Sequence record: MN850577.1
DNA: 64,000 bases
Reading direction: 5' to 3' (one strand)
DNA from: Escherichia phage heid
Shown here: in pieces, positions 8,450-49,079 of the stretch
Numbering within the stretch: position 1 is the first letter of the stretch
Layout of the letters: every line of letters starts with the position of its first letter
The notes under the pieces: model-generated
What the model saw: the letters and a program-made list of their open reading frames with translations, nothing else
The model's database searches: none
What the model was told of the DNA's origin: nothing
Program-made: the position numbers and the translations under genes

Positions 8450-8525
8450 TGGAGAATCCGAAGGGACTCGAACCCTTATAAACCTGTTTTGCAGACAGGC
8501 ACATATCCATTTCTGTCACGGATTC
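8450..8525 (-). tRNA. tRNA-Cys (anticodon GCA)
   Basis: Hand-folded cloverleaf: acceptor GAATCCG/CGGATTC, anticodon stem CCTGT/ACAGG, loop CTGCAAA, T-loop TTCGAGT, CCA encoded. Confidence 0.7.
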
Positions 8526-8529
8526 AAAT

Positions 8530-8623
8530 TGGAGGAAGATACCAGACTTGAACTGGTACACCGATTTCTCAGCTACTGGCAGTTTAGCAAACTGCTCCCT
8601 TACCTTTTAGGGTTAATCTTCCA
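8530..8623 (-). tRNA. tRNA-Ser (anticodon GCT), long variable arm
   Basis: Acceptor GGAAGAT/ATCTTCC, anticodon stem GCAGT/ACTGC, loop TTGCTAA, long variable arm, T-loop TTCAAGT. Confidence 0.65.
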
Positions 8624-9358
8624 TTATTTCTGTAATGCGCTCTTCATTTCTGGTGTTGCAATAGTGTCAATCACACCAGTTTTACAAGCATCGTCAAACC
8701 AGTCTGGTAAGATACCTGCTAAGAACCCATTGATATTCGTTTTAAGGTACTCTGCAATAAGGGCAGCTTCTTCTTCAATCATCTGCACAACTTCATCTGC
8801 ATAAGCTGTAATCTTTGAAATACCTTCATTAATCTTACTGACAGCTTGGTTAGCTAAATCAGAAACAGTATCAAGACCCTTATCAATAGCATCTTGTAAG
8901 TCACTTAACACACCATTAACACTATCTAGTGTACTGTTCATCATGTCAATAGCTTTTTGACCATACTCTGTAGCAACACCCATGATACCACTGAATGGTG
9001 TACAACCAACTTGTTCTCCTGCTGCACCCATAACATTGGAATACCCCTTTGCTACCTGCATACGTGATGAAAACTCATCAATAGATTTTTGACCGTAGTC
9101 TGTCAGAGTTTTAGTAGTTGCTGTAGTGCTTGTAAGGCTTGTTGTAAAGCTGTTTAGAAGGACTGTTGTAAGTCCAGCAGCAACAAGTTTCTCCTTCATT
9201 GTAGGGTCTGTTACAGAACTAATAGAGCTTACAAGTGATGTAGAGGCAGCTACGGTTCCACCGAGAACTGCTGCACCAGTAATAAGCGGGTTAGAGAACC
9301 CTTTACCAGTTTTTAAGAGATTAAAAATCTCCTTACCTTGTTCTGTCATCTCTTTCAT
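8624..9358 (-). CDS. hypothetical protein (Thr/Ser-rich central region)
   Basis: The 265 aa ORF call extends into tRNA-Phe; the ATG at 9358 (MKEMTEQGKEIF...) is the likely true start, giving a 244 aa product. Confidence 0.45.
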   Translation of the reverse strand: MKEMTEQGKEIFNLLKTGKGFSNPLITGAAVLGGTVAASTSLVSSISSVTDPTMKEKLVAAGLTTVLLNSFTTSLTSTTATTKTLTDYGQKSIDEFSSRMQVAKGYSNVMGAAGEQVGCTPFSGIMGVATEYGQKAIDMMNSTLDSVNGVLSDLQDAIDKGLDTVSDLANQAVSKINEGISKITAYADEVVQMIEEEAALIAEYLKTNINGFLAGILPDWFDDACKTGVIDTIATPEMKSALQK

Positions 9359-9374
9359 TAAGCACCTTTGAAAT

Positions 9375-9449
9375 TGGTAGTCCAGTGGGATTTGAACCCT
9401 CTTCTCATGTTTTTCAGACACGCGCTTTAACCATATAAGCTACTTGGAC
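9375..9449 (-). tRNA. tRNA-Phe (anticodon GAA)
   Basis: Acceptor GTCCAAG, D-stem GCTT/AAGC, anticodon stem CGTGT/ACATG, loop CTGAAAA, T-loop TTCAAAT, CCA encoded. Confidence 0.75.
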
Positions 9450-9457
9450 TATAAATT

Positions 9458-9532
9458 GGGGTGACCTACGGGATTTGAACCCGTATAGACCATGTTCACA
9501 GCATGGGTCATTACCGTTTATGATAAGGCCAC
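9458..9532 (-). tRNA. tRNA-His (anticodon GTG)
   Basis: Acceptor GTGGCCT/AGGTCAC, D-stem TCAT/ATGA, anticodon stem CCATG/CATGG, loop CTGTGAA. Confidence 0.7.
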
Positions 9533-9563
9533 ATTTAAGGACTCTCGCAAGAATCCTTAGAAG

Positions 9564-9639
9564 TGGCAGCGGCATAAGGATTTGAACCTTAATAGGACAG
9601 CTTCAGAGGCTGCTGCATTGCCAGTTATGCTATACCGCT
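9564..9639 (-). tRNA. tRNA-Gln (anticodon CTG)
   Basis: Acceptor AGCGGTA/TGCCGCT, anticodon stem GCAGC/GCTGT, loop CTCTGAA, T-loop TTCAAAT. Confidence 0.65.
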
Positions 9640-9644
9640 AAATT

Positions 9645-9723
9645 TGGTACTCCATATCGGATTCGAACCGATACATAACACAGATTTTAAGTCTGGCCTC
9701 TCTGCCAATTGGAGTAATGGAGC
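9645..9723 (-). tRNA. short tRNA with leucine-type anticodon TAA, no long variable arm, discriminator A
   Basis: Acceptor GCTCCAT/ATGGAGT, anticodon loop CTTAAAA on a 4-bp stem, T-loop TTCGAAT; about 79 nt. Confidence 0.5.
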
Positions 9724-9725
9724 AT

Positions 9726-9800
9726 TGGCGGGGGATGTTGGAATTGAACCAACTTCTTCGATTTCAAAGACCGAGGTTTTAACCTTGTAAACTAATCCCC
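9726..9800 (-). tRNA. tRNA-Gln (anticodon TTG), tentative
   Basis: Anticodon stem TCGGT/ATCGA, loop CTTTGAA, T-loop TTCAATT; acceptor pairing imperfect in my fold. Confidence 0.5.
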
Positions 9801-9809
9801 TTTAAATCT

Positions 9810-10367
9810 TTACTTTCTCAGTGGATGAATAAAGAATGCCAACATAACTCTTTCCCTTGAGAATGCTCTTTCTTCTGGGACAACACTTTTTAGTTTCCAT
9901 CCAATATAAATTCTCCAGTAAAATTGTTTACCAAAGATTTTAATTGATGGGATAAAAGCGAATAATCCCCAAGCATTACTGTTCCACATTAGGAGATAAC
10001 CTGTCTGATTATCTTCGGGGTCAGAACTTACGTTGATATTACCTTTCCACTTAGTAACATCTCTTACATCTCTTCCTAATACATGGTAAGAGAAGTTATA
10101 AGCTTTGTTTCTCCAGAGCCATCCGACTCTTTGCATGTAGACACCTAGTTTACCAATCCATCTAATATTAGCCCATCTTTTAACGTGACCTTCATCACCA
10201 TCAATTGGGTTGTCATATGTCTCCATCCATCTGAACCCGAAAGGTAAGTGCCCTTTCTTCTCACTGTAGAATGGAACTACAAAAGGTGCTAAGATAACTG
10301 CTAAGATTGCTGCAAATGGCTCTAACAAAGCTAAGAAAATCCATGAAGCATACTTCAAATATCTCAT
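9810..10367 (-). CDS. hypothetical membrane protein embedded in the tRNA cluster
   Basis: 185 aa ORF with hydrophobic N-terminus (IFLALLEPFAAILAVILAPFVVPF) and W/Y-rich body, flanked by tRNA genes. Confidence 0.5.
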   Translation of the reverse strand: MRYLKYASWIFLALLEPFAAILAVILAPFVVPFYSEKKGHLPFGFRWMETYDNPIDGDEGHVKRWANIRWIGKLGVYMQRVGWLWRNKAYNFSYHVLGRDVRDVTKWKGNINVSSDPEDNQTGYLLMWNSNAWGLFAFIPSIKIFGKQFYWRIYIGWKLKSVVPEERAFSRERVMLAFFIHPLRK

Positions 10368-10386
10368 CTAAATAGCCTCTTTAAAT

Positions 10387-10462
10387 TGGCGCAGGATAAG
10401 GGATTCGAACCCCTATTAACAGCTTCGTAGACTGTTGCTCTATCCATTTGAACTAATCCTGC
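10387..10462 (-). tRNA. tRNA-Arg (anticodon ACG)
   Basis: Acceptor GCAGGAT/ATCCTGC, D-stem GTTC/GAGC, anticodon stem ACAGT/GCTGT, loop CTACGAA, T-loop TCGAATC. Confidence 0.7.
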
Positions 10463-10467
10463 AAAAT

Positions 10468-10545
10468 TGGTGTTCCAAGACGGATTCGAACCGTCACTAA
10501 TACAAGGTTTGAGCTTGCATCCTCTGCCAATTGGGATACTGGAAC
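10468..10545 (-). tRNA. short tRNA with leucine-type anticodon CAA, no long variable arm, discriminator A
   Basis: Acceptor GTTCCAG/TTGGAAC, anticodon stem GCAAG/CTTGT, loop CTCAAAC, T-arm GACGG-TTCGAAT-CCGTC; about 78 nt. Confidence 0.5.
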
Positions 10546-10546
10546 A

Positions 10547-10621
10547 TGGTACTCACTAAAGGACTTGAACCTTTTTCTTCATCTTGTAAGGGTGATGTTT
10601 TACCATATAAACTAAGCGAGT
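10547..10621 (-). tRNA. tRNA-Val (anticodon TAC)
   Basis: Acceptor ACTCGCT/AGTGAGT, D-stem GTTT/AAAC, anticodon loop CTTACAA, T-arm AAAGG-TTCAAGT-CCTTT. Confidence 0.6.
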
Positions 10622-10715
10622 ATGAAAGAGGTCTGAAGTTGTGCCGCTAACTCAACTTCGTGGAATTTGTTACGGTCTTCAGTTGACTCAAAGCGGTCTT
10701 TCACTTGACCTCTGA
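10622..10715 (-). ncRNA. structured non-tRNA element between tRNA genes (candidate small RNA or processing element)
   Basis: About 90 nt with outer inverted repeat AGAGGTC...GACCTCT and inner 7-bp hairpin GAAGTTG...CAACTTC; carries the recurrent GGTCTTCAG motif; does not fold as a cloverleaf. Confidence 0.3.
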
Positions 10716-10717
10716 AT

Positions 10718-10793
10718 TGGTGCTCCCACAAGGACTCGAACCCTGATAAGTTGCTTACAAGGCAACCGTAATAACCAATTATACGATAGGAGC
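10718..10793 (-). tRNA. tRNA-Thr (anticodon TGT)
   Basis: Acceptor GCTCCTA/TGGGAGC, anticodon stem GTTGC/GCAAC, loop CTTGTAA, T-arm CAGGG-TTCGAGT-CCTTG. Confidence 0.7.
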
Positions 10794-10800
10794 ATTAATT

Positions 10801-10877
10801 TGGAGCATCCAGAGGGAATCGAACCCTCAACCTCAGTTTGGAAGACTGTAATTTTCCCGTTTAAACTATGGATGCAC
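10801..10877 (-). tRNA. tRNA-Gly (anticodon TCC)
   Basis: Anticodon stem ACAGT/ACTGA (one mismatch), loop CTTCCAA, T-loop TTCGATT, CCA encoded. Confidence 0.6.
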
Positions 10878-10881
10878 TAAT

Positions 10882-10957
10882 TGGTGGAGTCACTGAGAAT
10901 TGAACTCAGTTCCCAAGTTTGCAAAACTCGAATTTTAACCATATAAACTATGACCCC
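10882..10957 (-). tRNA. tRNA-Ala (anticodon TGC)
   Basis: Acceptor GGGGTCA with G3:U70 wobble (alanine identity element), D-stem GTTT/AAAT, anticodon stem CGAGT/ACTTG, loop TTTGCAA. Confidence 0.7.
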
Positions 10958-10963
10958 ATTGTT

Positions 10964-11039
10964 TGGTACAGGTGGAGGGAATTGAACCCATCGTCTTACT
11001 GATTAAGAGTCAGCCGCATAACCATTTTGCTACACCTGC
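10964..11039 (-). tRNA. tRNA-Lys (anticodon CTT), tentative
   Basis: Acceptor GCAGGTG/CACCTGT, anticodon stem GCTGA/TCAGT, loop CTCTTAA, T-loop TTCAATT. Confidence 0.55.
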
Positions 11040-11046
11040 ATTAATT

Positions 11047-11123
11047 TGGTACACCTAGAGAGATTCGAACTCACACTGAGCAGATTCTAAGTCTGCTGCC
11101 TCTACCAGTTGGGCTATAGGTGC
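11047..11123 (-). tRNA. short tRNA with leucine-type anticodon TAG, no long variable arm, discriminator A
   Basis: Clean 76-nt cloverleaf: acceptor GCACCTA/TAGGTGT, anticodon stem GCAGA/TCTGC, loop CTTAGAA, T-loop TTCGAAT. Confidence 0.6.
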
Positions 11124-11377
11124 ATTAAATCTTTTTAGAGAACTTCTAAGAACCTGAGCAACAAGGTTCCACAACAAGCGACTAATAACCTTAGAAGCCC
11201 TCTAAAAAGACCTAAATAGGTCTTTGCATAGTCTTGTTTAATCCGGTGACTAGAACCTTTGGAGAGCTTGATATTATCTCTTCTCCGTGACACCTACTAG
11301 GTGCTTTGACAGTGTACGACAATACACGAGGGATAAACCGACAATGCGAACAAGCATGGACGGAGTAAATCTTATTA
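11124..11377 (-). ncRNA. ORF-free about 250-nt spacer in tRNA cluster (candidate structured RNA, e.g. Y-RNA-like or intron remnant)
   Basis: No convincing ORF (the 64 aa call 11212..11406 overlaps tRNA-Ser); multiple local inverted repeats; lies between two tRNA genes. Confidence 0.25.
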
Positions 11378-11467
11378 GGCGGTAAGTAAAGGAGTCGAAC
11401 CCTCACCGTATCTCTACAGTGGCAACAGTTTTCAAGACTGTTTGGCTGCCATTAGCCGCTACCTACC
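11378..11467 (-). tRNA. tRNA-Ser (anticodon TGA), long variable arm
   Basis: Acceptor GGTAGGT/ACTTACC, anticodon stem ACAGT/ACTGT, loop CTTGAAA, long variable arm, T-loop TTCGACT; terminal CCA not fully encoded. Confidence 0.65.
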
Positions 11468-11480
11468 CCTAATAAGACTT

Positions 11481-11567
11481 TGGCATGGGACGGAGGAGTT
11501 GAACCCCTTTGAAACGGTTTTGGAGGCCGTTGCTCATGCCTTAGAGTCTTAACATCGTCCCATATTA
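11481..11567 (-). tRNA. atypical tRNA-like gene (possibly anticodon CCA, Trp); structure not canonical in my fold
   Basis: Acceptor ATGGGAC/GTCCCAT, T-loop TTCAACT, CCA encoded; candidate anticodon loop CTCCAAA, but the D region is over-long. Confidence 0.4.
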
Positions 11568-11700
11568 TAATTCGAAGCTTACCCTGTTATCTCAACACTG
11601 TCAAGCTTCTTCTCAGATTATTTACATGTTCTGGAAAACATGAGATACAGACCACCTCCCTACAGGAAGACCCGCTTAGGTCGTCTAAGTAATCTGCTAA

Positions 11701-12048
11701 CTAATACTTTGCATGTCTTACCCTATGGCAATTTGAACATAGCAAAACACATTTGTCAAGTTCATCTTTTAGTTCTTGAGAGAACTTAAGGCTTTTCCTA
11801 TGACCAATGTTAAAATCTTTATCTGAAGGATTCAAATGATGGAAGTCATACACTGCTGGATGATATTTCTTACCACAATCATGACAAACCCCACCTTTGT
11901 ACTCAATAGCTGAGAGTTTAAGTGCTCTTTGTCTTTCTATGGTTTGCTCATTAACACACTTTTTACAGTATGAATGAGTTCTCCTACCATCTTTCATGTA
12001 GAAATCATTTTCATCCTTGCTAAGTTTGCACCTAATACAAGTTTTCAT
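11701..12048 (-). CDS. HNH homing endonuclease inserted in the tRNA cluster
   Basis: Likely start MKTCIRC at 12048; paired zinc-binding motifs CIRC...CKKC and CHDCG...CSNCH plus HH...N typical of HNH nucleases; sits between tRNA genes. Confidence 0.6.
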   Translation of the reverse strand: MKTCIRCKLSKDENDFYMKDGRRTHSYCKKCVNEQTIERQRALKLSAIEYKGGVCHDCGKKYHPAVYDFHHLNPSDKDFNIGHRKSLKFSQELKDELDKCVLLCSNCHRVRHAKY

Positions 12049-12062
12049 GATTTCTCCAAAAT

Positions 12063-12144
12063 TGGTCGAGGCGGCAGGACTCGAACCCGCATACTCCACT
12101 TACTCGGTTAACGTCTGTTTAGAAGACAGATGAGATACGCCCCG
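12063..12144 (-). tRNA. tRNA-like gene, type undetermined (an anticodon-like loop reads TCT)
   Basis: Acceptor CGGGGCG/CGCCTCG, T-arm GCGGG-TTCGAGT-CCTGC, CCA encoded; the internal arms do not fold canonically by hand. Confidence 0.4.
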
Positions 12145-12392
12145 TAATTATCTTTAAAGACTCTCTTAGAAAGCCCTTAAAGATGCCCACCTTATTAATC
12201 ATACCGTGGGCGAGTACGCCAAATTCTTTGATGAGGGATTGGAAGACCTCACTGGTGTTTAGCCTATCAAGCTACTGCCAGAAAAACATTGTCGTTTGCA
12301 TTTATTTTAAATTTGCAAAATAGACGCTACGCAACGAAAACTAAGGTTACTATAAAGTAGTCACATCTCAATGTCAACAACTTTATTGAAAT
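12145..12392 (-). ncRNA. ORF-free about 250-nt spacer in tRNA cluster (candidate structured RNA)
   Basis: No ORF; AT-rich with embedded TTGACA-like boxes; between the HNH-adjacent tRNA and tRNA-Ile. Confidence 0.2.
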
Positions 12393-12468
12393 TGGTACTG
12401 GTAGGTGGAATCGAACCACCGATGTTCCCTTATCAGGGGAGTGTTATAACCTTCTTAACTATACCAGC
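12393..12468 (-). tRNA. tRNA-Ile (anticodon GAT)
   Basis: Acceptor GCTGGTA/TACCAGT, anticodon loop CTGATAA on stem TCCC/GGGA, T-arm GGTGG-TTCGATT-CCACC. Confidence 0.6.
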
Positions 12469-12469
12469 T

Positions 12470-12546
12470 TGGAGGTTCAGATGGGAATCGAACCCACATT
12501 CATAGGGCTTATGAGACCCTTGCATTACCTTATCTGCGACTGAACC
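12470..12546 (-). tRNA. tRNA-Met (anticodon CAT; could be elongator, initiator or Ile2)
   Basis: Acceptor GGTTCAG/CTGAACC, anticodon stem AGGGT/GCCCT, loop CTCATAA, T-loop TTCGATT. Confidence 0.6.
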
Positions 12547-12550
12547 ATAT

Positions 12551-12626
12551 TGGTAGAAGTGGAGGGATTCGAACCCATCGCCTGTCAGATTAAAAGTCTG
12601 CCGCATCACCATTCTGCTACACTTCC
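12551..12626 (-). tRNA. tRNA-Lys (anticodon TTT)
   Basis: Acceptor GGAAGTG/CACTTCT, anticodon loop CTTTTAA, T-loop TTCGAAT. Confidence 0.6.
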
Positions 12627-13056
12627 ATTAAATTATCTTTGTAGATAAGCTACCCAGACTTGCTTAAGGTCTGTAGCGATGTGCCTTTTTTGGGTTTAAA
12701 TCTAGAATTTACCCATTCACCCTTTGTGGTCGCATACTCACAAGTAAGCTTAATAACTTATCTACAAAGGTAATTACCAGACCGTTGTTTATCATCTTAA
12801 GTGCTACCATTACACCAACTCGACATCTGCCGAGTGAAGGAATCGAACCTTCGCCTTTTCTTTACCGGAGAAATAGATTGTTTAAGTTTTGCTGTAAACG
12901 GCCTTCTGTAAATTTGTTGAGCCAGACCAAGTTTTAAATTTTCAAAATTAAATTGGCTTGAAATTTCATACATTCTTGCTGTATTTGGTCTTCTGCTCCC
13001 TTAAAGAATACTCGTAAGAACTCTTTAAGGGAGGGGCTAAATAGCCCTCTCAAAAT
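12627..13056 (-). ncRNA. ORF-free spacer with tRNA-like fragment (T-arm GAAGG-TTCGATT-CCTTC near 12830) and repeated trailer motifs
   Basis: Contains a T-arm-like hairpin without a complementary acceptor partner, two copies of TTGCTGTA..GG(C/T)CTTCTG, and a GGGGCT/AGCCCT hairpin near 13030. Confidence 0.25.
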
Positions 13057-13133
13057 TGGCGGCTACGATGAGACTTGAACTCACATCATCTCCCGTGACA
13101 GGGGAGTATTTTCTCCAGTTAAACTACATAGCC
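13057..13133 (-). tRNA. tRNA-Asp (anticodon GTC)
   Basis: Acceptor GGCTATG/CGTAGCC, anticodon stem CTCCC/GGGAG, loop CTGTCAC, T-arm GTGAG-TTCAAGT-CTCAT. Confidence 0.7.
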
Positions 13134-13138
13134 TTTAT

Positions 13139-13226
13139 TGGTGTGCCGTGTAGGAGTCGAACCTACCGAGTCTCAATGACAAGGGATTTACAGTCCCCAC
13201 CGCTACCATCTACGGGATAACGACAC
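13139..13226 (-). tRNA. tRNA-Tyr (anticodon GTA), long variable arm
   Basis: Acceptor GTGTCGT/ACGGCAC, anticodon stem GGGGA/TCCCT, loop CTGTAAA, long variable arm, T-loop TTCGACT. Confidence 0.65.
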
Positions 13227-13234
13227 ATTTAATT

Positions 13235-13311
13235 TGGCGGTTAGTCAGGGATTCGAACCCTGTGCCATTCGCTTAACAGGCGACCGCACATACCTTATGT
13301 GCTTCCTAACC
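13235..13311 (-). tRNA. tRNA-Asn (anticodon GTT)
   Basis: Acceptor GGTTAGG/ACTAACC, anticodon loop CTGTTAA, T-arm CAGGG-TTCGAAT-CCCTG. Confidence 0.6.
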
Positions 13312-13389
13312 TTAATACATTGCCAGACCGTGTTTTTTCTGTTATCCGCAAAAAAGTATTTTGTTGCTGAATACGGTCTTCTGCAAAAT

Positions 13390-13465
13390 TGGAGGCGGGT
13401 GCAGGAGTCGAACCTGCCGATACCATGCTAATGAGACATGTGAGACGCCCTTTCTCTATACCCGC
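13390..13465 (-). tRNA. second tRNA with anticodon CAT (Met/fMet/Ile2)
   Basis: Acceptor GCGGGTA/TGCACCC, anticodon stem CATGT/GCATG, loop CTCATTA, T-loop TTCGACT. Confidence 0.6.
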
Positions 13466-13557
13466 AATTCTTAATGACCAGACCAAATCTCTTCTTTGTC
13501 CGATTTACCTTCAGATGAATAAGATTAAGTTTGCTGTAATTGGTCTTCTGTCAAAAC

Positions 13558-13635
13558 TGGCGTTCCAGAAGGGATTTGAACCCTCAGATATCCACTTTGA
13601 AAGAGTGGTGACTATACCATTTTGTCTACTGGAAC
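13558..13635 (-). tRNA. tRNA-Glu (anticodon TTC)
   Basis: Acceptor GTTCCAG/CTGGAAC, anticodon stem CCACT/AGTGG, loop CTTTCAA, T-loop TTCAAAT. Confidence 0.7.
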
Positions 13636-13642
13636 ATTAATT

Positions 13643-13718
13643 TGGTCTCTGTTGGAGGACTTGAACCTCCGGCCTTACCGCCCCAAACGGAACGCTCTAC
13701 CAATCTGAGCTAAACAGA
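13643..13718 (-). tRNA. tRNA-Pro (anticodon TGG)
   Basis: Acceptor CTCTGTT/AACAGAG, D-arm AGCTCAGATTGGTAGAGC, anticodon loop TTTGGGG, T-arm GGAGG-TTCAAGT-CCTCC. Confidence 0.65.
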
Positions 13719-13837
13719 GATAAACTTTTCAAACTCTATGTAACCACTTTAACATTATTTTTTAGTGATTGTCAAGAACTTTTTTAAAATATTTTTCAGT
13801 ATCTTAGAAAAGCTCTCATTTCGCTTCTATGTAGAAC

Positions 13838-13884: not shown

Positions 13885-15300
13885 TTACCAGATATAACGG
13901 TCAATCATTACTGCTTTGAGCATTACACTGATTGGGTCAAACTTCTCACCACCAAGCAGAGCTTTTAAAGTGGCTGGAGAGAACCCTGATACCATTGCTA
14001 CACCGTTATCCTTAACAGATACTTCGCAAGTACCATTACGGTTTGCTAAGTACCAGAATACCAGTTGTGGCATCTCATATCCAGCTTTTTTGTACTTACT
14101 CTGAATTGCTTCAAAGTTTGTACGACCGTTAGCTCCATCAACCTGATTAAACTCCATATCGGAGAAGATGATAAGCTTACTTGGCATATCTTTCTGAGTC
14201 AAGTTGTTTCTTTTACCTGTTTCAAGAATGCGGTCAAAAGCTGCTTGTAAGTTAGTTGAGCCATATTCAACGTGTCGCATCACCTGACGATGACGGTTTC
14301 GTAAATCACCACTCAGTTCGATGAAGTGAGGGTTTGTTGAATAAACCATTAACTCATTCTTAAAGCAACCTGTATTGCGTTCTGCTACATACAAGGCAAG
14401 TGATACACCAATATCCAGAGCAGTAATGGAGCCAAAATTCACCCAAGACATTGAACTTGATACATCAGACATACACAAGATGTTTTCACCTTCTGCCATC
14501 CAGTTTGGTAGTGCTTTCCACTGCTCATTAGCAACATCTGCATTACCATACTTGACAGATTTAATCACATCGTATGGGTAAACAGCACCAGCGTTAATCT
14601 TAGTCTCACCTTTTGATAAGGACTCGATGTAAGCTTTGTAACGCTCTCCATCTTTACGGTTAAACAGTTTTTGGTAACGTGCAGCAGCAAGTGAAGGAAT
14701 CTTACTGTAGTCAATCTTACCAAACTCATTAGCAGAGATTTTTTGCTCAACTGTATCAGATAGTGCAGACAACAGTGTGCGGTACTCTTTCTCACTCAAG
14801 TTGGCAAACTTGCAGAAACGTTTTACAAACTGCTTATGACGTGGTTTGACTCGTGGTAACCACTTAGCCGCCAAACCTGCTGTTGCAGGGTCTAGTAATG
14901 CTGCTTCTAAATGTTTGAAGGCATCTGTCTCGAAACGAGTACCTACGAAGATTTTGAAGTCATCAAAACGACCAAGTTCTGCAATCTTATCCATAATGCG
15001 AAGAACCTGCGTAGACTCTAAAACTTTGTCTTCAATTGCTTGAAGCAAAACAGTTCTGAAGGCTTTACGCTCACCCATACCTTCTCGTACATCTCGCATA
15101 TGAAGCAAAATACGAACTGCAACATCAACATCCTCACGCAAAGCTTTGTAGAACAGGTCTGGTAAGATTTCTACGTTGCTACGGCTTGAACCAGCAGCTT
15201 TGTAAAAGTTTACTAGAGCAGACATTGATGAAGTATGGTTTACAGCACCATTTTCAGTTCGACCTGCATGAAGGTGCGCATGTTTAAATAATTCGCTCAT
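13885..15300 (-). CDS. vWA-domain protein with MIDAS motif; possibly TROVE/Ro60-like or DUF2828-like
   Basis: 471 aa; helical N-terminal about 270 aa, then a DxSxS MIDAS motif (CMSDVSSSMS) and a C-terminal segment ending LIIFSDMEF, as in vWA folds; adjacent to the tRNA cluster. Confidence 0.45.
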   Translation of the reverse strand: MSELFKHAHLHAGRTENGAVNHTSSMSALVNFYKAAGSSRSNVEILPDLFYKALREDVDVAVRILLHMRDVREGMGERKAFRTVLLQAIEDKVLESTQVLRIMDKIAELGRFDDFKIFVGTRFETDAFKHLEAALLDPATAGLAAKWLPRVKPRHKQFVKRFCKFANLSEKEYRTLLSALSDTVEQKISANEFGKIDYSKIPSLAAARYQKLFNRKDGERYKAYIESLSKGETKINAGAVYPYDVIKSVKYGNADVANEQWKALPNWMAEGENILCMSDVSSSMSWVNFGSITALDIGVSLALYVAERNTGCFKNELMVYSTNPHFIELSGDLRNRHRQVMRHVEYGSTNLQAAFDRILETGKRNNLTQKDMPSKLIIFSDMEFNQVDGANGRTNFEAIQSKYKKAGYEMPQLVFWYLANRNGTCEVSVKDNGVAMVSGFSPATLKALLGGEKFDPISVMLKAVMIDRYIW

Positions 15301-15381: not shown

Positions 15382-15753
15382 TTATTTTTTGAGAGTCGCT
15401 ACAGCAGAAAACGTTGGTTTGTTATCTGTCTGGGTTTGACCACCATTATCAGGGGTTTTCTTAGTGTCTGCTGCAATCGCTTTCATCTCACCTGCTGAGT
15501 GGGTCATGATAGTTTTACCAGCTTCCATCATCGACTTCAGGTTTACATCGTCAGTCGTCAAACCGAACTCTGCAAGCTTAGCAGCATCCCTTGTAACAAT
15601 CGCCTCAAACAACTTTGCAGCAAACTCAGCAGAATTATCAATGGTCAGTTGAGCTTTTACGAGTGAACTTTTGTTACGAGAGCCTTTTGGTCTTCCAGAT
15701 GGGTTTCCAGACTGGCCTTTTTTAAACTGGCCTTTGTTTGTTCTGTTTTTCAT
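15382..15753 (-). CDS. hypothetical basic protein with N-terminal GNPSGRPKG motif
   Basis: 123 aa; N-terminus KGQFKKGQSGNPSGRPKGSRNK resembles a motif seen in small phage DNA-binding/packaging proteins (from memory, unverified). Confidence 0.4.
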   Translation of the reverse strand: MKNRTNKGQFKKGQSGNPSGRPKGSRNKSSLVKAQLTIDNSAEFAAKLFEAIVTRDAAKLAEFGLTTDDVNLKSMMEAGKTIMTHSAGEMKAIAADTKKTPDNGGQTQTDNKPTFSAVATLKK

Positions 15754-16145
15754 TGGTATGCCTCTTATAAGACCTCTTAAAAGGCTTTTAAGATAAAAGA
15801 TAGATATCCAGAAAGATATCTGTTTAAATAGCCTTTTTAGAGGAACCTTTTAAGTTATCTTCTAAGTATTTATAAGCCTACACCTTGTCAAGTACTTTGT
15901 CAACAACTTTTTTAACTTGCAATAGTTCTTGACTTGTTGTATGGATTACTGTACCATCTTACTTAAAGCTGTAGGTCTGCCTTGTTCTACAAAGGAGACT
16001 TAATGAGAAAATCAAATAAACCGAAGAAAGGTAAGAATACCAATCACTGTAAGGAATCAAAAAGGGTAGAATTAATCTACTATTCATCCTCTGAAATTGG
16101 TCTGTACCTGTTCTTTCAAAATTACAGAAGACAAGAGGATTATCT

Positions 16146-16379
16146 ATGTGTAGTTCCCAATTAGAAATCGCAGATATTATAGACTTATATCAAACTGCAA
16201 AGAGTCATGGCTATATAACCTCAATTGGAAAGAATAGTCACTATGATGCTTTGACTGGAATGTATTTCAGGGCAATGGCTCAATCTAGTGAACAACACTT
16301 AGTGGTTTCTTCCAGTGAGTTTACTTCGTTTCTCTATTGCAGCAAAATTATAAATCGCAGGAGAACTGAAAAATGTTAA
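16146..16379 (+). CDS. hypothetical small protein
   Basis: 77 aa ORF at the start of the plus-strand block; weak support. Confidence 0.3.
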   Translation: MCSSQLEIADIIDLYQTAKSHGYITSIGKNSHYDALTGMYFRAMAQSSEQHLVVSSSEFTSFLYCSKIINRRRTEKC

Positions 16380-16963
16380 CAGTAAGTTTTAATTACAATA
16401 GTGATGGCTCTGTATCAATTAACTCACCATATGCAAATGACCTACTTAAAGAGCTAGTCAGTCAGTGTGAGCGGGGTCTTCACTATGTTCAAAATTCTTT
16501 TAAACAGAAGACTATTGCTAATAACTTGATGCGTGTAACAGTGACGGCATCGAATCCAAACTATGACTTTGATAGTGAAAGTCCATACTCATTAGTTGCG
16601 CTTGGAGAGTCCAGCCAATTCAAACTTGTTTGCCACGACTCAGAAACATTCCTTAAGGTATTTTCCAACCTTATCCATAATAATAAGTACAGCTACGTTG
16701 ATGGTAGTGTAAACTTCTATCCAGCAAACTATACATGTTTGTTGACTGATAATATGAGAAAAAGTAAGCAAGAACCTACAGAAATTTCATTTGATGTGAA
16801 CTCTAGTCCAGACGCAGAAACAAGTAAGAACTTTGATATGAGTTACGCATTGTCACTTAGTAAGAAATCCGAGTTCATTGATTATGTCAATGGATTTGGT
16901 TTTAAGTTTGATGAGAGTATGAATCTTAAAAAACTTAAGAACCTACTTAAGACTAAAGCTTAA
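16373..16963 (+). CDS. hypothetical protein
   Basis: 196 aa ORF followed by a hairpin (AGGGGCTGATGCCCCT) at about 16972-16992. Confidence 0.5.
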   Translation: MLTVSFNYNSDGSVSINSPYANDLLKELVSQCERGLHYVQNSFKQKTIANNLMRVTVTASNPNYDFDSESPYSLVALGESSQFKLVCHDSETFLKVFSNLIHNNKYSYVDGSVNFYPANYTCLLTDNMRKSKQEPTEISFDVNSSPDAETSKNFDMSYALSLSKKSEFIDYVNGFGFKFDESMNLKKLKNLLKTKA

Positions 16964-17010
16964 GTGTGAATAGGGGCTGATGCCCCTTTAACTATTTATA
17001 AGGATATTTA

Positions 17011-17382
17011 ATGAAAGCTAAGAGTGCAAAAGACTTTTATTGCTTCCTACAATCCTATATCAATTCCGTGCAAAATGGTGAAAGGTACAACCTTAATGAT
17101 GTTATCCCAACACCTTTGACATGGAGACTCAGCAAATGGCCTGAAGAAGATATTACACCAACAAGCGAACAACGCACCTACAAACCTGAAATCAATATTC
17201 CAGATTCTGAGAATCTACTATATCCAATGTTCCATATTGTTGGTCTTGGAAGATTCCTTATGGATATCCAGTATGTAATTGGTAAGGGTTATAAGGTTAA
17301 AGGTATTGTTGTTGGTGATGTATCTCCACATCACAAAGGTTATTTTAGACTAAACGCACATTTAGAGGCTAAAAAGAAATGA
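17011..17382 (+). CDS. hypothetical protein, paralog of the N-terminal domain of the downstream Ig-like protein
   Basis: 123 aa; shares motifs with residues 1-125 of the next gene (PLTWRLSKWPEEDI vs PLTYSSYWPEADI; FLMDIQYVIGKG vs FMDLQYAIINGK); ATGA overlap with the next gene. Confidence 0.55.
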   Translation: MKAKSAKDFYCFLQSYINSVQNGERYNLNDVIPTPLTWRLSKWPEEDITPTSEQRTYKPEINIPDSENLLYPMFHIVGLGRFLMDIQYVIGKGYKVKGIVVGDVSPHHKGYFRLNAHLEAKKK

Positions 17383-18512
17383 TTAAAGCAAAGACTTACC
17401 CAGACTTCAAAGAGTTTGTGAAGGGCTTCATTGCAAACGTAAAAGCTGGTAAGAGATATGATTTTAGAGCATATCAAGAGGCTATTTTACCGCTTACCTA
17501 TAGTTCGTATTGGCCTGAAGCTGATATTGCAGAAGTTGAGGAGTTTGACTACAAACCAGACTACAAAGTTCCATTTAGTGATGAGTTGCTTTACAACATT
17601 GGTGCTCAAATGAGAACTTCTGACTTCTTCATGGACTTACAATATGCAATTATCAATGGTAAAGATGTTGATACAATTTATTGTGAATGGCTGGCAAGAG
17701 TTAAACCGTTCTCAATGTTGAATGCTAAGTTGAAGGATGCTATCAAGCCACCATCAATCACTCAGCAACCAACCAATCAAACAGTAAATGAAGGGGGTAC
17801 ACTTACCCTAAGCGTTATTGCAACTAATGTCACTGGATATCAATGGAAAAAGGATGGTGAGGACATCCCTAGTGCCAATTCTGCAACTTACACAAAACAG
17901 TCAGTAGCACCTTCTGACGCTGGTTCATACACTTGTGTTGTATCTGGAGAGGGTGGAACAAGTGTTACCTCAGATGCAGCAACAGTGACTGTGAACGCAC
18001 TACCTGTGATTACACAACAACCTTCTAGCCAGACCATCAATGAGGGTGGAAACATCAGCTTGGAAGTGACTGCAACGGGTGCAACGGGTTACCAGTGGAA
18101 GAAAGATGGCTCTGACATTCCTTCAGCGACAAATGCTACCTATAGCAAGTCTGGTGCTCTGCCAGCAGATGCAGGTTCATACACTTGCGTTGTAACAGGT
18201 GCAGGTGGTTCTGTTACTTCTAGCCCTGCAACAGTTACTGTGAATGCACTTCCGGTAATCACTCAGCAACCAACCAATCAAGAAATCACTGAAGGTGAGA
18301 CCTTAACACTGAATGTTGTGGCAACAGGTGCGACAGGTTATCAGTGGAAGAAAGGTGAGGAAGTCATCCCAGACGCAACTGCTGCAACTTACACCAAAGA
18401 AGGTGCAACCGCTGCTGATGCAGGAAGCTACACCTGTGTAGTGACTGGCGCAGGTGGCTCTGTAACATCTAATGCGGCAACAGTTACAGTTAACCCAGCA
18501 GGGGAGGCATAA
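17379..18512 (+). CDS. Ig-like-repeat protein (Hoc-like surface/adhesin candidate)
   Basis: 377 aa; N-domain paralogous to the upstream gene, then three tandem about 83-aa repeats (ITQQP..NEGG.L.L.V.ATG.TGYQWKKDG.DIP.A..ATY.K....DAGSYTCVV.G.GG.VTS..ATVTVN) with Ig-like W and Y-x-C positions. Confidence 0.6.
   Translation: MIKAKTYPDFKEFVKGFIANVKAGKRYDFRAYQEAILPLTYSSYWPEADIAEVEEFDYKPDYKVPFSDELLYNIGAQMRTSDFFMDLQYAIINGKDVDTIYCEWLARVKPFSMLNAKLKDAIKPPSITQQPTNQTVNEGGTLTLSVIATNVTGYQWKKDGEDIPSANSATYTKQSVAPSDAGSYTCVVSGEGGTSVTSDAATVTVNALPVITQQPSSQTINEGGNISLEVTATGATGYQWKKDGSDIPSATNATYSKSGALPADAGSYTCVVTGAGGSVTSSPATVTVNALPVITQQPTNQEITEGETLTLNVVATGATGYQWKKGEEVIPDATAATYTKEGATAADAGSYTCVVTGAGGSVTSNAATVTVNPAGEA
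17754..18500 (+). repeat. three tandem about 249-bp coding repeats (Ig-like domains)
   Basis: Near-identical DNA segments, e.g. actcagcaaccaaccaatcaa at about 17761 and 18261; repeat unit equals one Ig-like domain. Confidence 0.6.
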
Positions 18513-18976
18513 TGCAACTCTCAAGAAAAGGTTTAGATGCTATTAAGTTCTTCGAAGGTCTGGAGTTAGAGGCTTACGAAGATTCTGCCGGAATCCCAAC
18601 AATCGGGTATGGGACAATCCGTATTGACGGAAAACCTGTTAAGATGGGTATGAAGATTACCGCTGAACAAGCTGAACAGTATCTTCTCGCAGATGTTGAA
18701 AAGTTTGTTGCAGCAGTGAACAAAGCCGTCAATGTTCCAACTTCTCAGAATGAGTTTGACGCACTTGTAAGTGAAACATACAACATTGGTATCACAGCTA
18801 TGCAGGATTCCACATTTATCAAGCGCCACAATGCTGGTAATAAGGTGGGTTGTGCAGAAGCTATGCAGTGGTGGAACAAGGTTACAGTCAAAGGTAAGAA
18901 GGTCACTTCAAACGGACTGAAAAACAGACGTAGAATGGAAGCTGACATTTATCTTGACAGTGTATACCCAAAGTAA
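18512..18976 (+). CDS. endolysin, T4-lysozyme-like (GH24) muramidase
   Basis: 154 aa; catalytic-region motif FEGLELEAYEDSAGIPTIGYGT matches the E...D...T triad spacing of T4 lysozyme-type enzymes. Confidence 0.7.
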   Translation: MQLSRKGLDAIKFFEGLELEAYEDSAGIPTIGYGTIRIDGKPVKMGMKITAEQAEQYLLADVEKFVAAVNKAVNVPTSQNEFDALVSETYNIGITAMQDSTFIKRHNAGNKVGCAEAMQWWNKVTVKGKKVTSNGLKNRRRMEADIYLDSVYPK

Positions 18977-18986
18977 TATCTTCATA

Positions 18987-19008
18987 GGCTCCTTCGGGAG
19001 CCTTTTTT
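18987..19008 (+). terminator. rho-independent terminator after the endolysin gene
   Basis: GGCTCC-TTCG-GGAGCC hairpin followed by TTTTTT. Confidence 0.7.
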
Positions 19009-19027
19009 ATTTTCTAAGGAGAAAACT

Positions 19028-19426
19028 ATGAAACTTTGGGCTAGTGACTTTGGGACTTTTAAGTACACTCGTAATGGCTCGCTTGTACGCATTGTCGGGA
19101 ACAATGTGGTTTCAAGAGGTGACAAGGTATATACACGGTTTACTGTAGAGCTTGTTGAACTGTCACCTATTGAGTCTGTGAACAATGGCCTGTTCAAGTT
19201 TGAGACTTACAATGTCAACGAACATGGACAATTCAACCCTCTCGGTGAAAGTGGACTTGATATTATTTCAGAGCACCCATTGACAAAAGAGCAACTTGCA
19301 AGTTATTATAAAACTGTTCTGGAAAGGCAGTTAGCAACACATGAACAAGAAGCTAACTATCATTTACAACATTGCGAAGCTTTAAGAGCAAAAATCGAAC
19401 AAGCAGAGAGAGGTTTCTATGAATAA
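19028..19426 (+). CDS. hypothetical protein
   Basis: 132 aa ORF with upstream RBS (AGGAGAAAA); compact operon with downstream overlapping genes. Confidence 0.5.
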   Translation: MKLWASDFGTFKYTRNGSLVRIVGNNVVSRGDKVYTRFTVELVELSPIESVNNGLFKFETYNVNEHGQFNPLGESGLDIISEHPLTKEQLASYYKTVLERQLATHEQEANYHLQHCEALRAKIEQAERGFYE

Positions 19427-19808
19427 AGAGATTCAAGTAAAAGTTGACACTTTTGGCCATGATGGCCGTGAAGACGCTGGTCTTGCTGATGCAGTAATTT
19501 TTGAGTGTAATGGTAATATCAGCCTTCGTTTTACAGGCTCAGGTAGCACACTACGTAGGATGCGAGATGATGCAGATGGCTGCCCTGTATTTGGTTGGTA
19601 TGACATGGAGTTCCCACTTTATGCAATCCATTATCCAGATGGTGGGGAAGATTGGACAACTCAATCAATCCGTGATGAGCTTAACGGTATTCCAGTTGAG
19701 CAAGAAGAGCAAGAGCCTGTTGAACTCACCTTCACTTTTATCAAAGAAGAGAAAGTTGGTGATTTGTCTGTAACTGAAGCAATTCAAGTCTCACAGGTTA
19801 TTCGTTAA
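19419..19808 (+). CDS. hypothetical protein
   Basis: 129 aa ORF; start overlaps the stop of the previous gene. Confidence 0.5.
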   Translation: MNKEIQVKVDTFGHDGREDAGLADAVIFECNGNISLRFTGSGSTLRRMRDDADGCPVFGWYDMEFPLYAIHYPDGGEDWTTQSIRDELNGIPVEQEEQEPVELTFTFIKEEKVGDLSVTEAIQVSQVIR

Positions 19809-20101
19809 TGAGTAAAGTACAGGTTGTTTTCCCTATTTGTGACTTCTCACTAGAGCGTGAACTTGACCTGTACGAAGAAATTACTGACGAAATCATCTGG
19901 TCTGTTGTAGAAGAGGCTATCAAGAAGCTGTATGGTGGCCTCTTAAACCCATCAAGTAAAAAGCTCAACACTAAACAAGTAGCTGATACGTACACTGCAT
20001 ACGATGCCTACAACAAGCCTTTTGAAAATACCTGCTTTGACCTTATGGTAGGTAATAATAAAGTCAACTATTTCTTCGTCAGAGAGTTTAACGATGAGTA
20101 A
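19808..20101 (+). CDS. hypothetical protein
   Basis: 97 aa ORF, overlap-coupled to neighbours. Confidence 0.45.
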   Translation: MSKVQVVFPICDFSLERELDLYEEITDEIIWSVVEEAIKKLYGGLLNPSSKKLNTKQVADTYTAYDAYNKPFENTCFDLMVGNNKVNYFFVREFNDE

Positions 20102-34903: not shown

Positions 34904-36013
34904 TTAGATTTCACGTTTACGCTGAGAGATGAGTTCACCAGCAGTACCGACGATGACATGCAAAGCTTCAGTCTTACCGTCCCATGCTTTCAGCACTTTG
35001 CGTTGGTTATCAACGATTGCTGCAACTTCATAACGAGAGGAACGCATCTTCATATCGTTGTAATCAGTTGGGACAGATACAACATCTCGTGGATGGACAC
35101 GAACCTTCAGGATTGTATCACCTGAGAAGCAACGGACATAATCCCAAGCACCAACATGAAGACCCTGGGAGCAAGTCACATTACGGTTATTATCAACCAT
35201 CCAACGTGGCATTTCTACAATGTTACCCAAGTCATTAGGTACTCTGTATGTGTGGGAGTCAACCAGCTTGCCTTCACGAGTAGAGACTTTCTTCCAACCA
35301 ATGATGTAGCCTTCTTCATCAATCTCAACATCAAGGTGAGATACGAATCCCCAAAGTTGTTCTACAGAATCTTTAGATGGATTTTCCATCAGTTTTTCGA
35401 AGAACATTACAAGGCGTTCAAAACCTTTATCTCCAGTCTTCATCATGTGAAGAATACGGTCAACCAGAGTAGAACGCATCTCAACAGCACCGTAGAATAG
35501 TTTGTCACCTTTGATTGTGATAGCACCCTGAGTGAAGTTTTCGATAGACTTACGAATGTTCATTAGTTCGAAAGCTTTCTTATACTCACCGGATACAACA
35601 GCCATCACGATTTCTTTGTAGTTTGGATGGGTAGATTCAACGATTTCAGAATCTGCACCGAAAGTCATGATAACAGAGTCGCCAGTAATCATGTACTCAA
35701 TCTGGTTGCCATTCTGCATAGCTTCGTGCAGTTTATTTACTGGAGCTTTCTGTACAGCGTCTTTAACGACCTTTTCAACTGGTTTGCCAGCTTTCTTTTT
35801 AAAAGTCTTAGCAACTTGCTTCAAAGTCTTCGTAGCTGGTGTAGAAGTCACCTTCTTCTTCCCTTTTAAGGTTGCTTCATGACGCTCTACAGCACGACCA
35901 ACTGAACGGGTTGAAGTGTTAAATTTCTGTGCAATAGCTGTTTTGGTCAGCTTACCTTCTTTAACCAGTTTGTAAATTTCTGCGTCAATCTGTGCTTTAG
36001 TTTTAGTAGTCAT
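34904..36013 (-). CDS. rIIB: rIIB-like protein (by synteny with rIIA)
   Basis: 369 aa ORF immediately downstream of the rIIA-like gene; basic, HTH-like N-terminus; no motif recognised, call rests on synteny. Confidence 0.4.
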   Translation of the reverse strand: MTTKTKAQIDAEIYKLVKEGKLTKTAIAQKFNTSTRSVGRAVERHEATLKGKKKVTSTPATKTLKQVAKTFKKKAGKPVEKVVKDAVQKAPVNKLHEAMQNGNQIEYMITGDSVIMTFGADSEIVESTHPNYKEIVMAVVSGEYKKAFELMNIRKSIENFTQGAITIKGDKLFYGAVEMRSTLVDRILHMMKTGDKGFERLVMFFEKLMENPSKDSVEQLWGFVSHLDVEIDEEGYIIGWKKVSTREGKLVDSHTYRVPNDLGNIVEMPRWMVDNNRNVTCSQGLHVGAWDYVRCFSGDTILKVRVHPRDVVSVPTDYNDMKMRSSRYEVAAIVDNQRKVLKAWDGKTEALHVIVGTAGELISQRKREI

Positions 36014-47462: not shown

Positions 47463-47697
47463 TATTCACCTCTGCCATAAAATTCTGTAGCGTCCCAACA
47501 GGTTTTAGGTTTTGTCCATCGGTTTTCATGATGAATGGCATCTGACGAACTGGCATCTGTGCAATATCCATCAGGTCTGACAGTTCATAATCCTGCCCTA
47601 ACATTCTCACAACATGGTCAATACCACGAGCTTTTGCAAAATTCTTTGCAGTCTCACACTGAGGGCATCCAGTTTTGGAGTAAATTATATAAGTCAT
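47455..47697 (-). CDS. glutaredoxin/NrdH-like redoxin
   Basis: 80 aa; CPQC active-site motif near the N-terminus (YSKTGCPQCETAK). Confidence 0.7.
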   Translation of the reverse strand: MTYIIYSKTGCPQCETAKNFAKARGIDHVVRMLGQDYELSDLMDIAQMPVRQMPFIMKTDGQNLKPVGTLQNFMAEVNNA

Positions 47698-48770
47698 TAA
47701 GGAACCTCTAAAAATCCACTATTCAAATCATCTACAACAGTATTCAACAGGTACGCACCGTTCTGTTGCTCCTGATTAGCATTCTGCTCTTTATCAATTT
47801 CCATCTTCTTAATCATGTACTTCAAAGGTGGTTCTTTGGGAGCTACAAAATCTCTTGGAATGCCAAACATATCATACAGTGGGGCAGCATTATAGTAAAC
47901 CCACTCATGAAGAAGCTTTGTATTTAAGCCAACTACAGCACGTCCTTCGGAGAAGATATAATACGACCATTTCTCTTCACTTTCAACTACTTCATCTAAG
48001 ATTACTTTAATCTCTGGAAGAATCTGTTGAAAAGCTTTCTGCCACTCATCATCTCTTAAAGTTTCTTTTAAAACTTCAATATCAATTTTAGTGTGAAGGA
48101 TTTCGTCAAGCATAATCTTCTGGACAGCTTGAGCAATACCCTGAAATTTATCTTGAGCATCAAGTGCAAAGGTACATGCAAAGGATGCCATAAAAGATAT
48201 ACCTTCAAGTGCAGTCACTGCAAACAGACCTTTTAGAATCACTTTATGGAAGTGTAAAGGGTCTTTGTCCAGAAGTGAATCACGTACATAACTCAGTCGG
48301 TAGTTTATCCCTTCATCCAATAATTCTTCAAGAACACGATTCACAGTTTTTAATCGGTCTTGCACAGCAACATTCTGGTTAATCTCATCTAAGATTGTTT
48401 CAGGGTTTTTAATACATTGCCTTACAATCTCTGAGTAAGTAAGAGCATGTAGGTTTTCAATCTCAGACTGCTTCATAATTGCAGTTGCATATATGTCATC
48501 AGAGATAAAAGGTGCAAAGGCAAATGCCAAGCTCTTAGCAACTTGAGTGTCTGCTTCCCATTGCCACTTAAGAATCTCAAGCATTACACCTGACATTGAT
48601 GCTGGGACACTCTCAAAATCAAGACGTGATTGTTCAAAAGGGAACTCATCTTCTGACCAATCTTGTGCTTTTTGTTGTTTATAAAGTTCAAAGATTTTTG
48701 GGTAGTGCTTATTGAGTGAGTCAAAAGTTTTTCTCTCACCACCTAAAAAGATTGGGTGCTGGTTAATCAT
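47697..48770 (-). CDS. nrdB: ribonucleotide reductase small subunit (class Ia beta)
   Basis: Start set to the ATG at 48770 (MINQHPIF...) with RBS AAGGAGA 8 nt upstream; di-iron-type helical protein of typical size, adjacent to nrdA. Confidence 0.7.
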   Translation of the reverse strand: MINQHPIFLGGERKTFDSLNKHYPKIFELYKQQKAQDWSEDEFPFEQSRLDFESVPASMSGVMLEILKWQWEADTQVAKSLAFAFAPFISDDIYATAIMKQSEIENLHALTYSEIVRQCIKNPETILDEINQNVAVQDRLKTVNRVLEELLDEGINYRLSYVRDSLLDKDPLHFHKVILKGLFAVTALEGISFMASFACTFALDAQDKFQGIAQAVQKIMLDEILHTKIDIEVLKETLRDDEWQKAFQQILPEIKVILDEVVESEEKWSYYIFSEGRAVVGLNTKLLHEWVYYNAAPLYDMFGIPRDFVAPKEPPLKYMIKKMEIDKEQNANQEQQNGAYLLNTVVDDLNSGFLEVP

Positions 48771-49024: not shown

Positions 49025-49079
49025 GGTCTCTCCAAAGTTATTTTTAGAGGGTCTTTTACGACCCTCATAGTTATTAAAA

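Follow-up and report, generated by a model that had tools for sequence, protein, structure and literature searches.

A probable Hoc-like capsid decoration gene and an Ig-less duplicate of its capsid-binding domain upstream of the endolysin gene in Felixounavirus

What is the role of a protein with three immunoglobulin (Ig)-like domains, preceded by a short relative of its own N-terminus, in a phage that encodes both directly upstream of its endolysin? This was addressed in the window, i.e., the whole 64,000-nt stretch of Escherichia phage heid (MN850577.1) that was analyzed. The window is a Felixounavirus genome with ~96-97.5% identity to ECML-1 and wV8, and its 16300-19100 region matched 250 phage records, the closest being Escherichia phage ECML-1 (97.5%) followed by dune and wV8 (96%). 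The gene pair is very probably a Felixounavirus Hoc-like capsid decoration gene with an ancient copy of its capsid-binding domain (CapBD), devoid of Ig domains, just upstream.

The locus and its neighbors

The pair comprised open reading frames at 17011-17382 (123 aa, the short gene) and 17379-18512 (377 aa, the long gene), exactly the coordinates at which the earlier note had read a tandem paralog pair. The paralogy was borne out by BLASTP, which aligned the two proteins with 38% identity over ~100 residues (residues 2-100 of the long protein; E 6e-17), and by the reciprocal matches of the short and long proteins to each other's PHROG (phrog_4463 and phrog_3995; E 4e-16 and 6e-15). The features of the locus are listed below, where Hex-Dec is the decoration protein of phage Bas63 to which the long protein is compared in the next section.

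16973-16989, + strand: GC hairpin GGGGC-TGAT-GCCCC with a trailing TTT, located between the short gene and the preceding gene for a 196-aa protein (reading of the sequence)
17011-17382, + strand: short paralog, 123 aa, pI 9.1, phrog_4463, CapBD fold without Ig domains (homology and AF2)
17379-17756, + strand: CapBD of the Hex-Dec ortholog, residues 1-126 (aligned with the cryo-EM chains 9ncf_S and 9c2d_S)
17757-18008, + strand: Ig-like (I-set/Ig_3) domain 1 (Pfam, AF2, Foldseek)
18009-18257, + strand: Ig-like domain 2 (Pfam, AF2, Foldseek)
18093-18105, + strand: 13-nt word CAGTGGAAGAAAG (QWKK codons), with an exact copy in unit 3 at 18342-18354
18258-18509, + strand: Ig-like domain 3 (Pfam, AF2, Foldseek), with the stop codon directly after it at 18510-18512
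18512-18976, + strand: endolysin (Phage_lysozyme, E 9e-41), last in the three-gene block
18986-19013, + strand: intrinsic terminator-like hairpin AGGCTCC-TTCG-GGAGCCT with a T-run, closing the block and annotated as a terminator in wV8

The short and long genes share a 4-nt ATGA overlap (17379-17382) and the endolysin ATG overlaps the stop codon of the long gene by one base (TAATG), the three genes overlapping end to end between two terminator-like hairpins. The wV8 site equivalent to the upstream hairpin (16973-16989) is annotated as a rho-independent terminator; a consensus scan made no terminator call for this hairpin, and read-through past it is likely because the T-tract is weak. A sigma-70 promoter scan returned hits no more numerous than in shuffled sequence and none that was convincing at 16963-17011. 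The wV8 equivalents are gp42 (short, hypothetical) and gp41 (long, "tail protein") followed by the endolysin in the wV8 annotation, and those of Felix O1 are ORF37 (short), ORF36 (long, encoding gp36), and the adjoining lysin gene ORF35. By its own coordinates the long gene lies immediately before the lysozyme gene (start at 18512) and away from the structural module, and a scan of ORFs of at least 200 aa in the 30-64 kb part of the window identified replication, nucleotide-metabolism, rII, and NAMPT genes.

Capsid placement of the Ig-bearing protein

Comparison of the long protein with the PDB by phmmer gave near full-length alignments, both beginning at residue 1, to 9ncf_S ("Immunoglobulin-like domain protein", 460 aa; E 1e-295) and 9c2d_S ("Tail protein", 372 aa; E 6e-167), which identify the long gene by sequence as the ortholog of Bas63 Hex-Dec (9ncf_S) and Sf14 gp20 (9c2d_S). 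The likeness includes full-length homology, Arg79 and Arg107, the I-set type of Ig domain, and the position in the genome, with three Ig domains in the window phage and in Sf14 and four in Bas63. In these orthologs >10 kb separate the decoration gene and the structural module, the CapBD is made up of the N-terminal 118-120 residues and binds as a monomer in hexamer centers, and the Ig domains are flexible and unresolved in cryo-EM (PMC12609058; PMC11821841). Occupancy of the T=9 head is limited to the pentamer-adjacent (quasi-3-fold, facet-edge) hexamers, such that Hex-Dec is found on 60 of the 80 hexamers and the other 20 are the true-3-fold hexamers (PMC12609058; PMC11821841). The hexamer center of Sf14 is lined with Asp, and Arg79 and Arg107 pair with Asp221 of the MCP (PMC11821841). 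Both arginines were present in the window's long protein and invariant in alignment A4.

With the capsid location carried over from orthologs that share roughly 85-95% identity in the CapBD, the long protein would almost certainly decorate the capsid hexamer centers in the manner of its Bas63 and Sf14 counterparts. One monomer would insert its N-terminal ~120-aa helical CapBD into the acidic center of each of the 60 pentamer-adjacent hexamers, Arg79 and Arg107 would pair with MCP Asp221 by homology to Sf14, and the three flexible I-set Ig domains would project outward from the head. Decoration of the virion surface had been proposed in the earlier note, which regarded absence from virions and lack of an Ig fold as evidence to the contrary; the orthologs have been solved on the capsid, Felix O1 gp36 was detected in virions by mass spectrometry, and both virion presence and the Ig fold were found for orthologs.

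Most database records describe the product of the long gene as a tail protein, which is at odds with this placement. The labels "tail protein" and "putative tail protein" occur in wV8, Felix O1, and many other records, and the 2010 mass spectrometry study of Felix O1 virions reported gp36 (31.6 kDa) as the "major tail protein" (PMC3185647). However, two independent cryo-EM structures locate the N-terminal domain of the orthologs in capsid hexamer centers and report that the decoration protein is often mis-annotated as a tail component (PMC12609058; PMC11821841), and the authors of the Bas63 study call the tail annotation wrong (PMC12609058). The tail-protein reading is already refuted for the orthologs and has a negligible probability for the window's protein.

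The long protein shares with T4 Hoc its predicted state as a hexamer-center monomer, an outward string of Ig-like domains, an acidic surface, and a probably non-essential role. PHROG families annotated as "Hoc-like head decoration" matched only residues ~121-290, i.e., the Ig part, and no sequence similarity to T4 Hoc was found outside the Ig domains. Further differences are the order of domains, as the CapBD is N-terminal in the long protein whereas it is C-terminal in T4 Hoc, and the CapBD fold, which is larger, topologically distinct, and pseudo-C2 symmetric (PMC12609058). The Hex-Dec type also occupies only a subset of the hexamers, unlike T4 Hoc. The long protein works like Hoc but falls outside the Hoc family. 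A like modular logic, with an N-terminal capsid anchor and swappable Ig-like/Big_2 display domains, is seen in T5 pb10 and similar decoration proteins, the anchors of which are unrelated in sequence to the CapBD.

Adhesion, aggregation, or environmental sensing have been proposed as functions from the analogy with T4 Hoc (PMC12609058; PMC11821841). By this analogy, the purpose of the Ig domains is probably weak surface adhesion or particle-particle contacts, while weak adhesion taken singly is a plausible role that they may or may not have, with the balance slightly against it. The adhesion to carbohydrate or mucin raised in the earlier note is likewise a literature analogy with T4 Hoc and would be a putative role for this family. 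A mouse-gut Felixounavirus paper checked for Ig or mucus data contained none.

Ig domain number and in-register recombination

The three repeats of ~83 aa with conserved W and YTC positions described in the earlier note corresponded to units 84, 83, and 84 aa long, all of which contained GYQWKK and GSYTCVV, with 67-71% protein identity between units. Pfam assigned Ig_3 (E 1e-33), Ig_2, and I-set to three stretches apiece of the long protein, AF2 modeled the three domains with pLDDT 94-97, and Foldseek matched the Ig model to three-Ig fragments of titin I67-I69 (target-normalized TM 0.63), Robo1, and LRIG1. At the DNA level the units of 249-252 nt were 63-66% identical in pairwise comparisons, and the longest exact words common to the unit pairs were 13, 14, and 24 nt. 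The suggestion of near-identical tandem DNA units of 249 bp was dropped because Tandem Repeats Finder identified no 249-nt array in 16000-20000.

A variable number of Ig domains was described for the group with four in Bas63 and one to three in the other felixounaviruses compared, 18 in all (PMC12609058). The forms identified in the present searches were as follows.

One Ig domain, 210 aa: IME338, HK3, Henu11, SFPB, and many metagenomic clusters
Two Ig domains, 293-294 aa: Felix O1, Moogle, and REP5
Three Ig domains, 377 aa: the window and wV8; most of the best 120 clusters
Four Ig domains, 460-461 aa: P0106-P0110

These are examples and carry no unbiased frequency, because the first profile search (alignment A1) gave only proteins of at most 217 aa and the full-protein search was represented by its best 120 matches, mostly 377-aa forms. 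Some of the one-Ig variants derive from short-read metagenome assemblies and are possible artifacts; 210-aa forms were also present in four complete GenBank phage genomes.

Several of these forms were also compared at the DNA level. The Felix O1 gene consists of unit 1 and a unit 2/3 hybrid that tracks unit 2 of the window for ~80 nt and then unit 3, with the switch at the word common to both units (18093 and 18342). REP5 carries a unit 1/2 hybrid and unit 3, the switch falling in the zone equivalent to that of Felix O1, and the single unit of IME338 is unit 3 with a patch of unit 1. The four-Ig form is composed of units 1, 2, X, and 3, where X is ~65% identical to each of the three others; the window phage is without this unit type, which lies between units 2 and 3 in the four-Ig forms. 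Approximately 20 different mosaic patterns were distinguished at the protein level among the 210-aa clusters, although this is a crude map and some of the clusters come from short-read assemblies.

The hybrid units show in-register unequal recombination that changes the number of Ig domains, which upholds the earlier proposal that repeat number is altered in this way and does so despite repeats of only ~65% identity. The recombination acts on an old, diverged array via short conserved words, and the traceable events in repeat number are deletions or mosaics and not fresh duplications. Repeated shortening and reshuffling of the array at such words would give rise to the relatives with one to four Ig domains.

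The stand-alone CapBD paralog

The short protein matched the same two chains as the long protein in phmmer against the PDB (9ncf_S and 9c2d_S; E 1e-11, residues 2-117). Its AF2 model was of moderate confidence (pLDDT 63.5), and a Foldseek search with this model retrieved only 9c2d_S and 9ncf_S (TM 0.58, prob 1.00, 123-124 aligned columns). The solved chains were used for this comparison of the paralog folds in place of an AF2 model of the long protein's CapBD, which was poor (pLDDT 31-59). The short gene is a stand-alone paralog of the Hex-Dec CapBD that has the same fold and lacks Ig domains. It is a member of phrog_4463, a family of hypothetical 123-aa proteins including wV8 gp42, Felix O1 ORF37, and CHB7 gp94, the records of which are labeled hypothetical or, by transfer, "tail protein". 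The stand-alone paralog receives no mention in the structure papers on Bas63 (PMC12609058) or Sf14 (PMC11821841).

An intact short copy was identified in 232 of 252 Ounavirinae records (Felixounavirus and Mooglevirus) with 74-100% identity, preceding Hex-Dec genes that encode anywhere from one to four Ig domains. The same order was displayed by a divergent metagenomic contig of 87 kb, with genes for proteins of 195 aa, 122 aa, and 298 aa (two Ig domains) followed by the lysozyme. The remaining ~20 records were without an intact copy, and the two that were inspected (REP5 and Z31) held a remnant in which the ATG was gone and an internal deletion of ~230 nt had occurred. REP5 retains an intact two-Ig Hex-Dec gene and that of Z31 is also truncated; it therefore seems that neither gene is required to form plaques.

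The duplication is ancient, because the paralogs are only 38% identical, their synonymous sites are saturated (pS 0.71), and in a neighbor-joining tree of the CapBD the short copies form one clade and the long copies another, each spanning Felixounavirus, Mooglevirus, and the lineage of the divergent 87-kb contig. The recent diversification that the earlier note had suspected is contradicted by these data. Among short orthologs, dN/dS values of 0.06-0.20 at a dS of ~1 indicate that the short copy is maintained by purifying selection.

Regarding expression, ORF37 and ORF36 of Felix O1 were both assigned by RT-PCR to the 60-min class together with other structural genes, and the lysin and ORF38 peaked at 25 min (PMC3185647). 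This 2010 table is the sole source for the timing, as no relevant Felixounavirus transcriptome turned up in the literature. ORF37 was not among the proteins detected by mass spectrometry in Felix O1 virions, though proteins of 9.7 and 11.7 kDa were (PMC3185647), which is a weak negative, and the supplement of the Sf14 study lists no mass spectrometry results for the short gene's ortholog. No density was reported on the remaining hexamers of Bas63 or Sf14 (PMC12609058; PMC11821841), where icosahedral averaging in cryo-EM could hide low-occupancy binding. Our best guess, offered tentatively, is that the short protein is an accessory to head decoration or assembly that is transient or not part of the virion; it would act at hexamer centers or on the loading of Hex-Dec during head assembly and be helpful but dispensable.

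Recruitment of the short paralog to a job away from the capsid, e.g., host-factor binding or as a decoy of a defense sensor, would make the homology only historical and is a somewhat doubtful alternative. It would account for the inverted charge compared to the CapBD of the long gene (pI 9.1 versus 5.0) and for the loss of Arg79, where all 16 short copies that were compared have Gly. At the Arg107 position, Felixounavirus and Mooglevirus have His or Gln, and only the divergent lineage (P0099) has Arg. Faster evolution than the long CapBD (45% versus 57% identity to the divergent lineage) and the failure to find the short protein in virions point in the same direction. However, the short gene was linked to the Hex-Dec gene by the start/stop overlap in every genome examined, late expression is odd timing for host takeover or anti-defense, and neither Pfam nor Foldseek of the AF2 model linked the short protein to another family.

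It is unlikely that the short paralog is a minor virion component, bound to the 20 true-3-fold hexamers or competing with Hex-Dec and in this way setting the number of Ig fibers. The solved CapBD fold, the late peak with structural genes in Felix O1, the basic protein (pI 9.1) facing an Asp-lined hexamer center, and the coverage of only 60 of the 80 hexamers by Hex-Dec are consistent with such a role. Against it stand the lack of density on the other hexamers in both cryo-EM studies, the missing ORF37 in a Felix O1 virion proteome in which smaller proteins were detected, and the Gly in every short copy at the Arg79 contact position. A dedicated regulator of decoration that binds hexamer centers or Hex-Dec during head assembly and sets which, or how many, hexamers receive the Ig fiber is a more speculative and rather improbable reading. 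If true, it would help to explain why just 60 of the 80 hexamers are decorated, and the decoration protein would have a paralog of its own as antagonist or chaperone, an arrangement not met in descriptions of Hoc-like systems. A functionless duplicate in the course of being lost is very improbable, as the ~20 records without an intact copy and the remnants in REP5 and Z31 are set against the low dN/dS over a dS of ~1, intact copies in 232 of 252 records and across three lineages, and late transcription in Felix O1.

For the wider family, a CapBD profile run exhaustively with HMMER against 1.84 billion representatives returned only 12 clusters, and in the distant relatives the CapBD is followed by Big_2, I-set, or a Lys/Ser-rich tail. 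The few clusters and varied tails thus describe the CapBD as a lineage-restricted anchor with exchangeable display modules. Distant loci with enough flanking DNA (P0105) contained a single CapBD gene between gp43-like and lysozyme genes, and other distant contigs were too short or divergent to tell the number of CapBD genes. One distant contig has, upstream of its CapBD gene, a gene for 141 aa whose beginning resembles a CapBD helix; it was not counted as a paralog because the match was not significant (hhalign probability 19%, BLASTP E 0.05). The short gene probably represents a derived copy from which a display module was lost or in which none ever existed.

The Ig-bearing protein is already known, its orthologs having been solved by two cryo-EM studies in 2025, and the "tail protein" label still present on most genomes is wrong. 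The "hypothetical" gene upstream duplicates the capsid anchor as a stand-alone protein, is conserved, and is expressed late, with natural null alleles in REP5 and Z31, and the variants with one to four Ig domains reflect recurrent in-register recombination in an old, diverged array. The CapBD anchor belongs to a family with very few members, and in distant relatives it is joined to different display modules. As the decoration protein tolerates loss and exchange of Ig modules, display engineering of such phages may be possible in principle.

Gene order around the pair

The genes upstream of the tandem pair, i.e., the short stand-alone CapBD paralog and the Hex-Dec gene encoding a CapBD followed by three Ig units, were identified in the window as follows.

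Features upstream of the pair
8450-13719, minus strand: cluster of 25 tRNA genes
13885-15300: 471-aa DUF2828/DUF7788 "RNA-binding protein" gene, directly adjoining the tRNA cluster
15382-15753: DUF5681 gene, neighboring the tRNA cluster together with the DUF2828/DUF7788 gene
16373-16963: 196-aa gene of phrog_4034, upstream of the pair

The trio of tRNA cluster, DUF2828/DUF7788, and DUF5681, followed by the gp43-like, CapBD, and lysozyme genes, was conserved in this order also in highly divergent relatives (loci L012-L014). The phrog_4034 gene was found beside the CapBD gene in every lineage examined, including the distant ones, and its product's counterparts in L012-L014 displayed a faint Phage_Inh_N match in Pfam. 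In a further distant locus (L010, metagenome contig ERZ28641481 scaffold_2981), a 141-aa gene at 1739-2161 was located directly 5' of the CapBD-I-set gene. The start of its protein (MLKAKQYDSFEEL...) was similar to the first CapBD helix, a match that was not significant (hhalign probability 19%), and the gene may represent a second paralog in tandem that has diverged strongly.

Elsewhere in the window, the rII-like, nicotinamide phosphoribosyltransferase, and Nrd genes are standard Felixounavirus content.

Other genes of the window
34904-36013, minus strand: rIIB-like gene
36093-38459, minus strand: rIIA-like gene
39035-40816, minus strand: nicotinamide phosphoribosyltransferase gene (593 aa)
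45063-47207: NrdD gene, beyond the nicotinamide phosphoribosyltransferase gene
47697-51314: ribonucleoside-diphosphate reductase small and large subunit genes, beyond NrdD

Reduced and anomalous copies of the locus

In Shigella phage Z31 (MN655999; locus L003, 2998-3570), the short paralog was mostly gone and the Hex-Dec gene was reduced to a 134-aa CapBD-only ORF plus a 55-aa fragment that retains the terminal part of the last Ig unit. Either both genes are naturally close to null in this phage, or the arrangement stems from a sequencing or assembly error.

The 147 kb record GU169904 (matched record H45), labeled "Staphylococcus phage SA1," contained copies of the Felixounavirus short paralog (143190-143558) and of Hex-Dec at 99% identity to them, and looks like a chimeric or contaminated entry. 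The locus occurred at two locations in each of MG969406 (Salmonella phage GE_vB_B3, H26) and MG969407 (H25); at 109,375 bp, GE_vB_B3 is ~20 kb above other members of the genus and may have been assembled with concatenated or redundant sequence.

Ig units and bacterial I-set repeats

A PDB sequence search matched the Hex-Dec Ig units to 12 stretches of the grappling-hook protein GhpA (9flp_A; E 6e-75) from Aureispira, a predatory bacterium. This match was far stronger than those to animal Ig proteins and hints at a pool of I-set repeats common to bacteria and phages.
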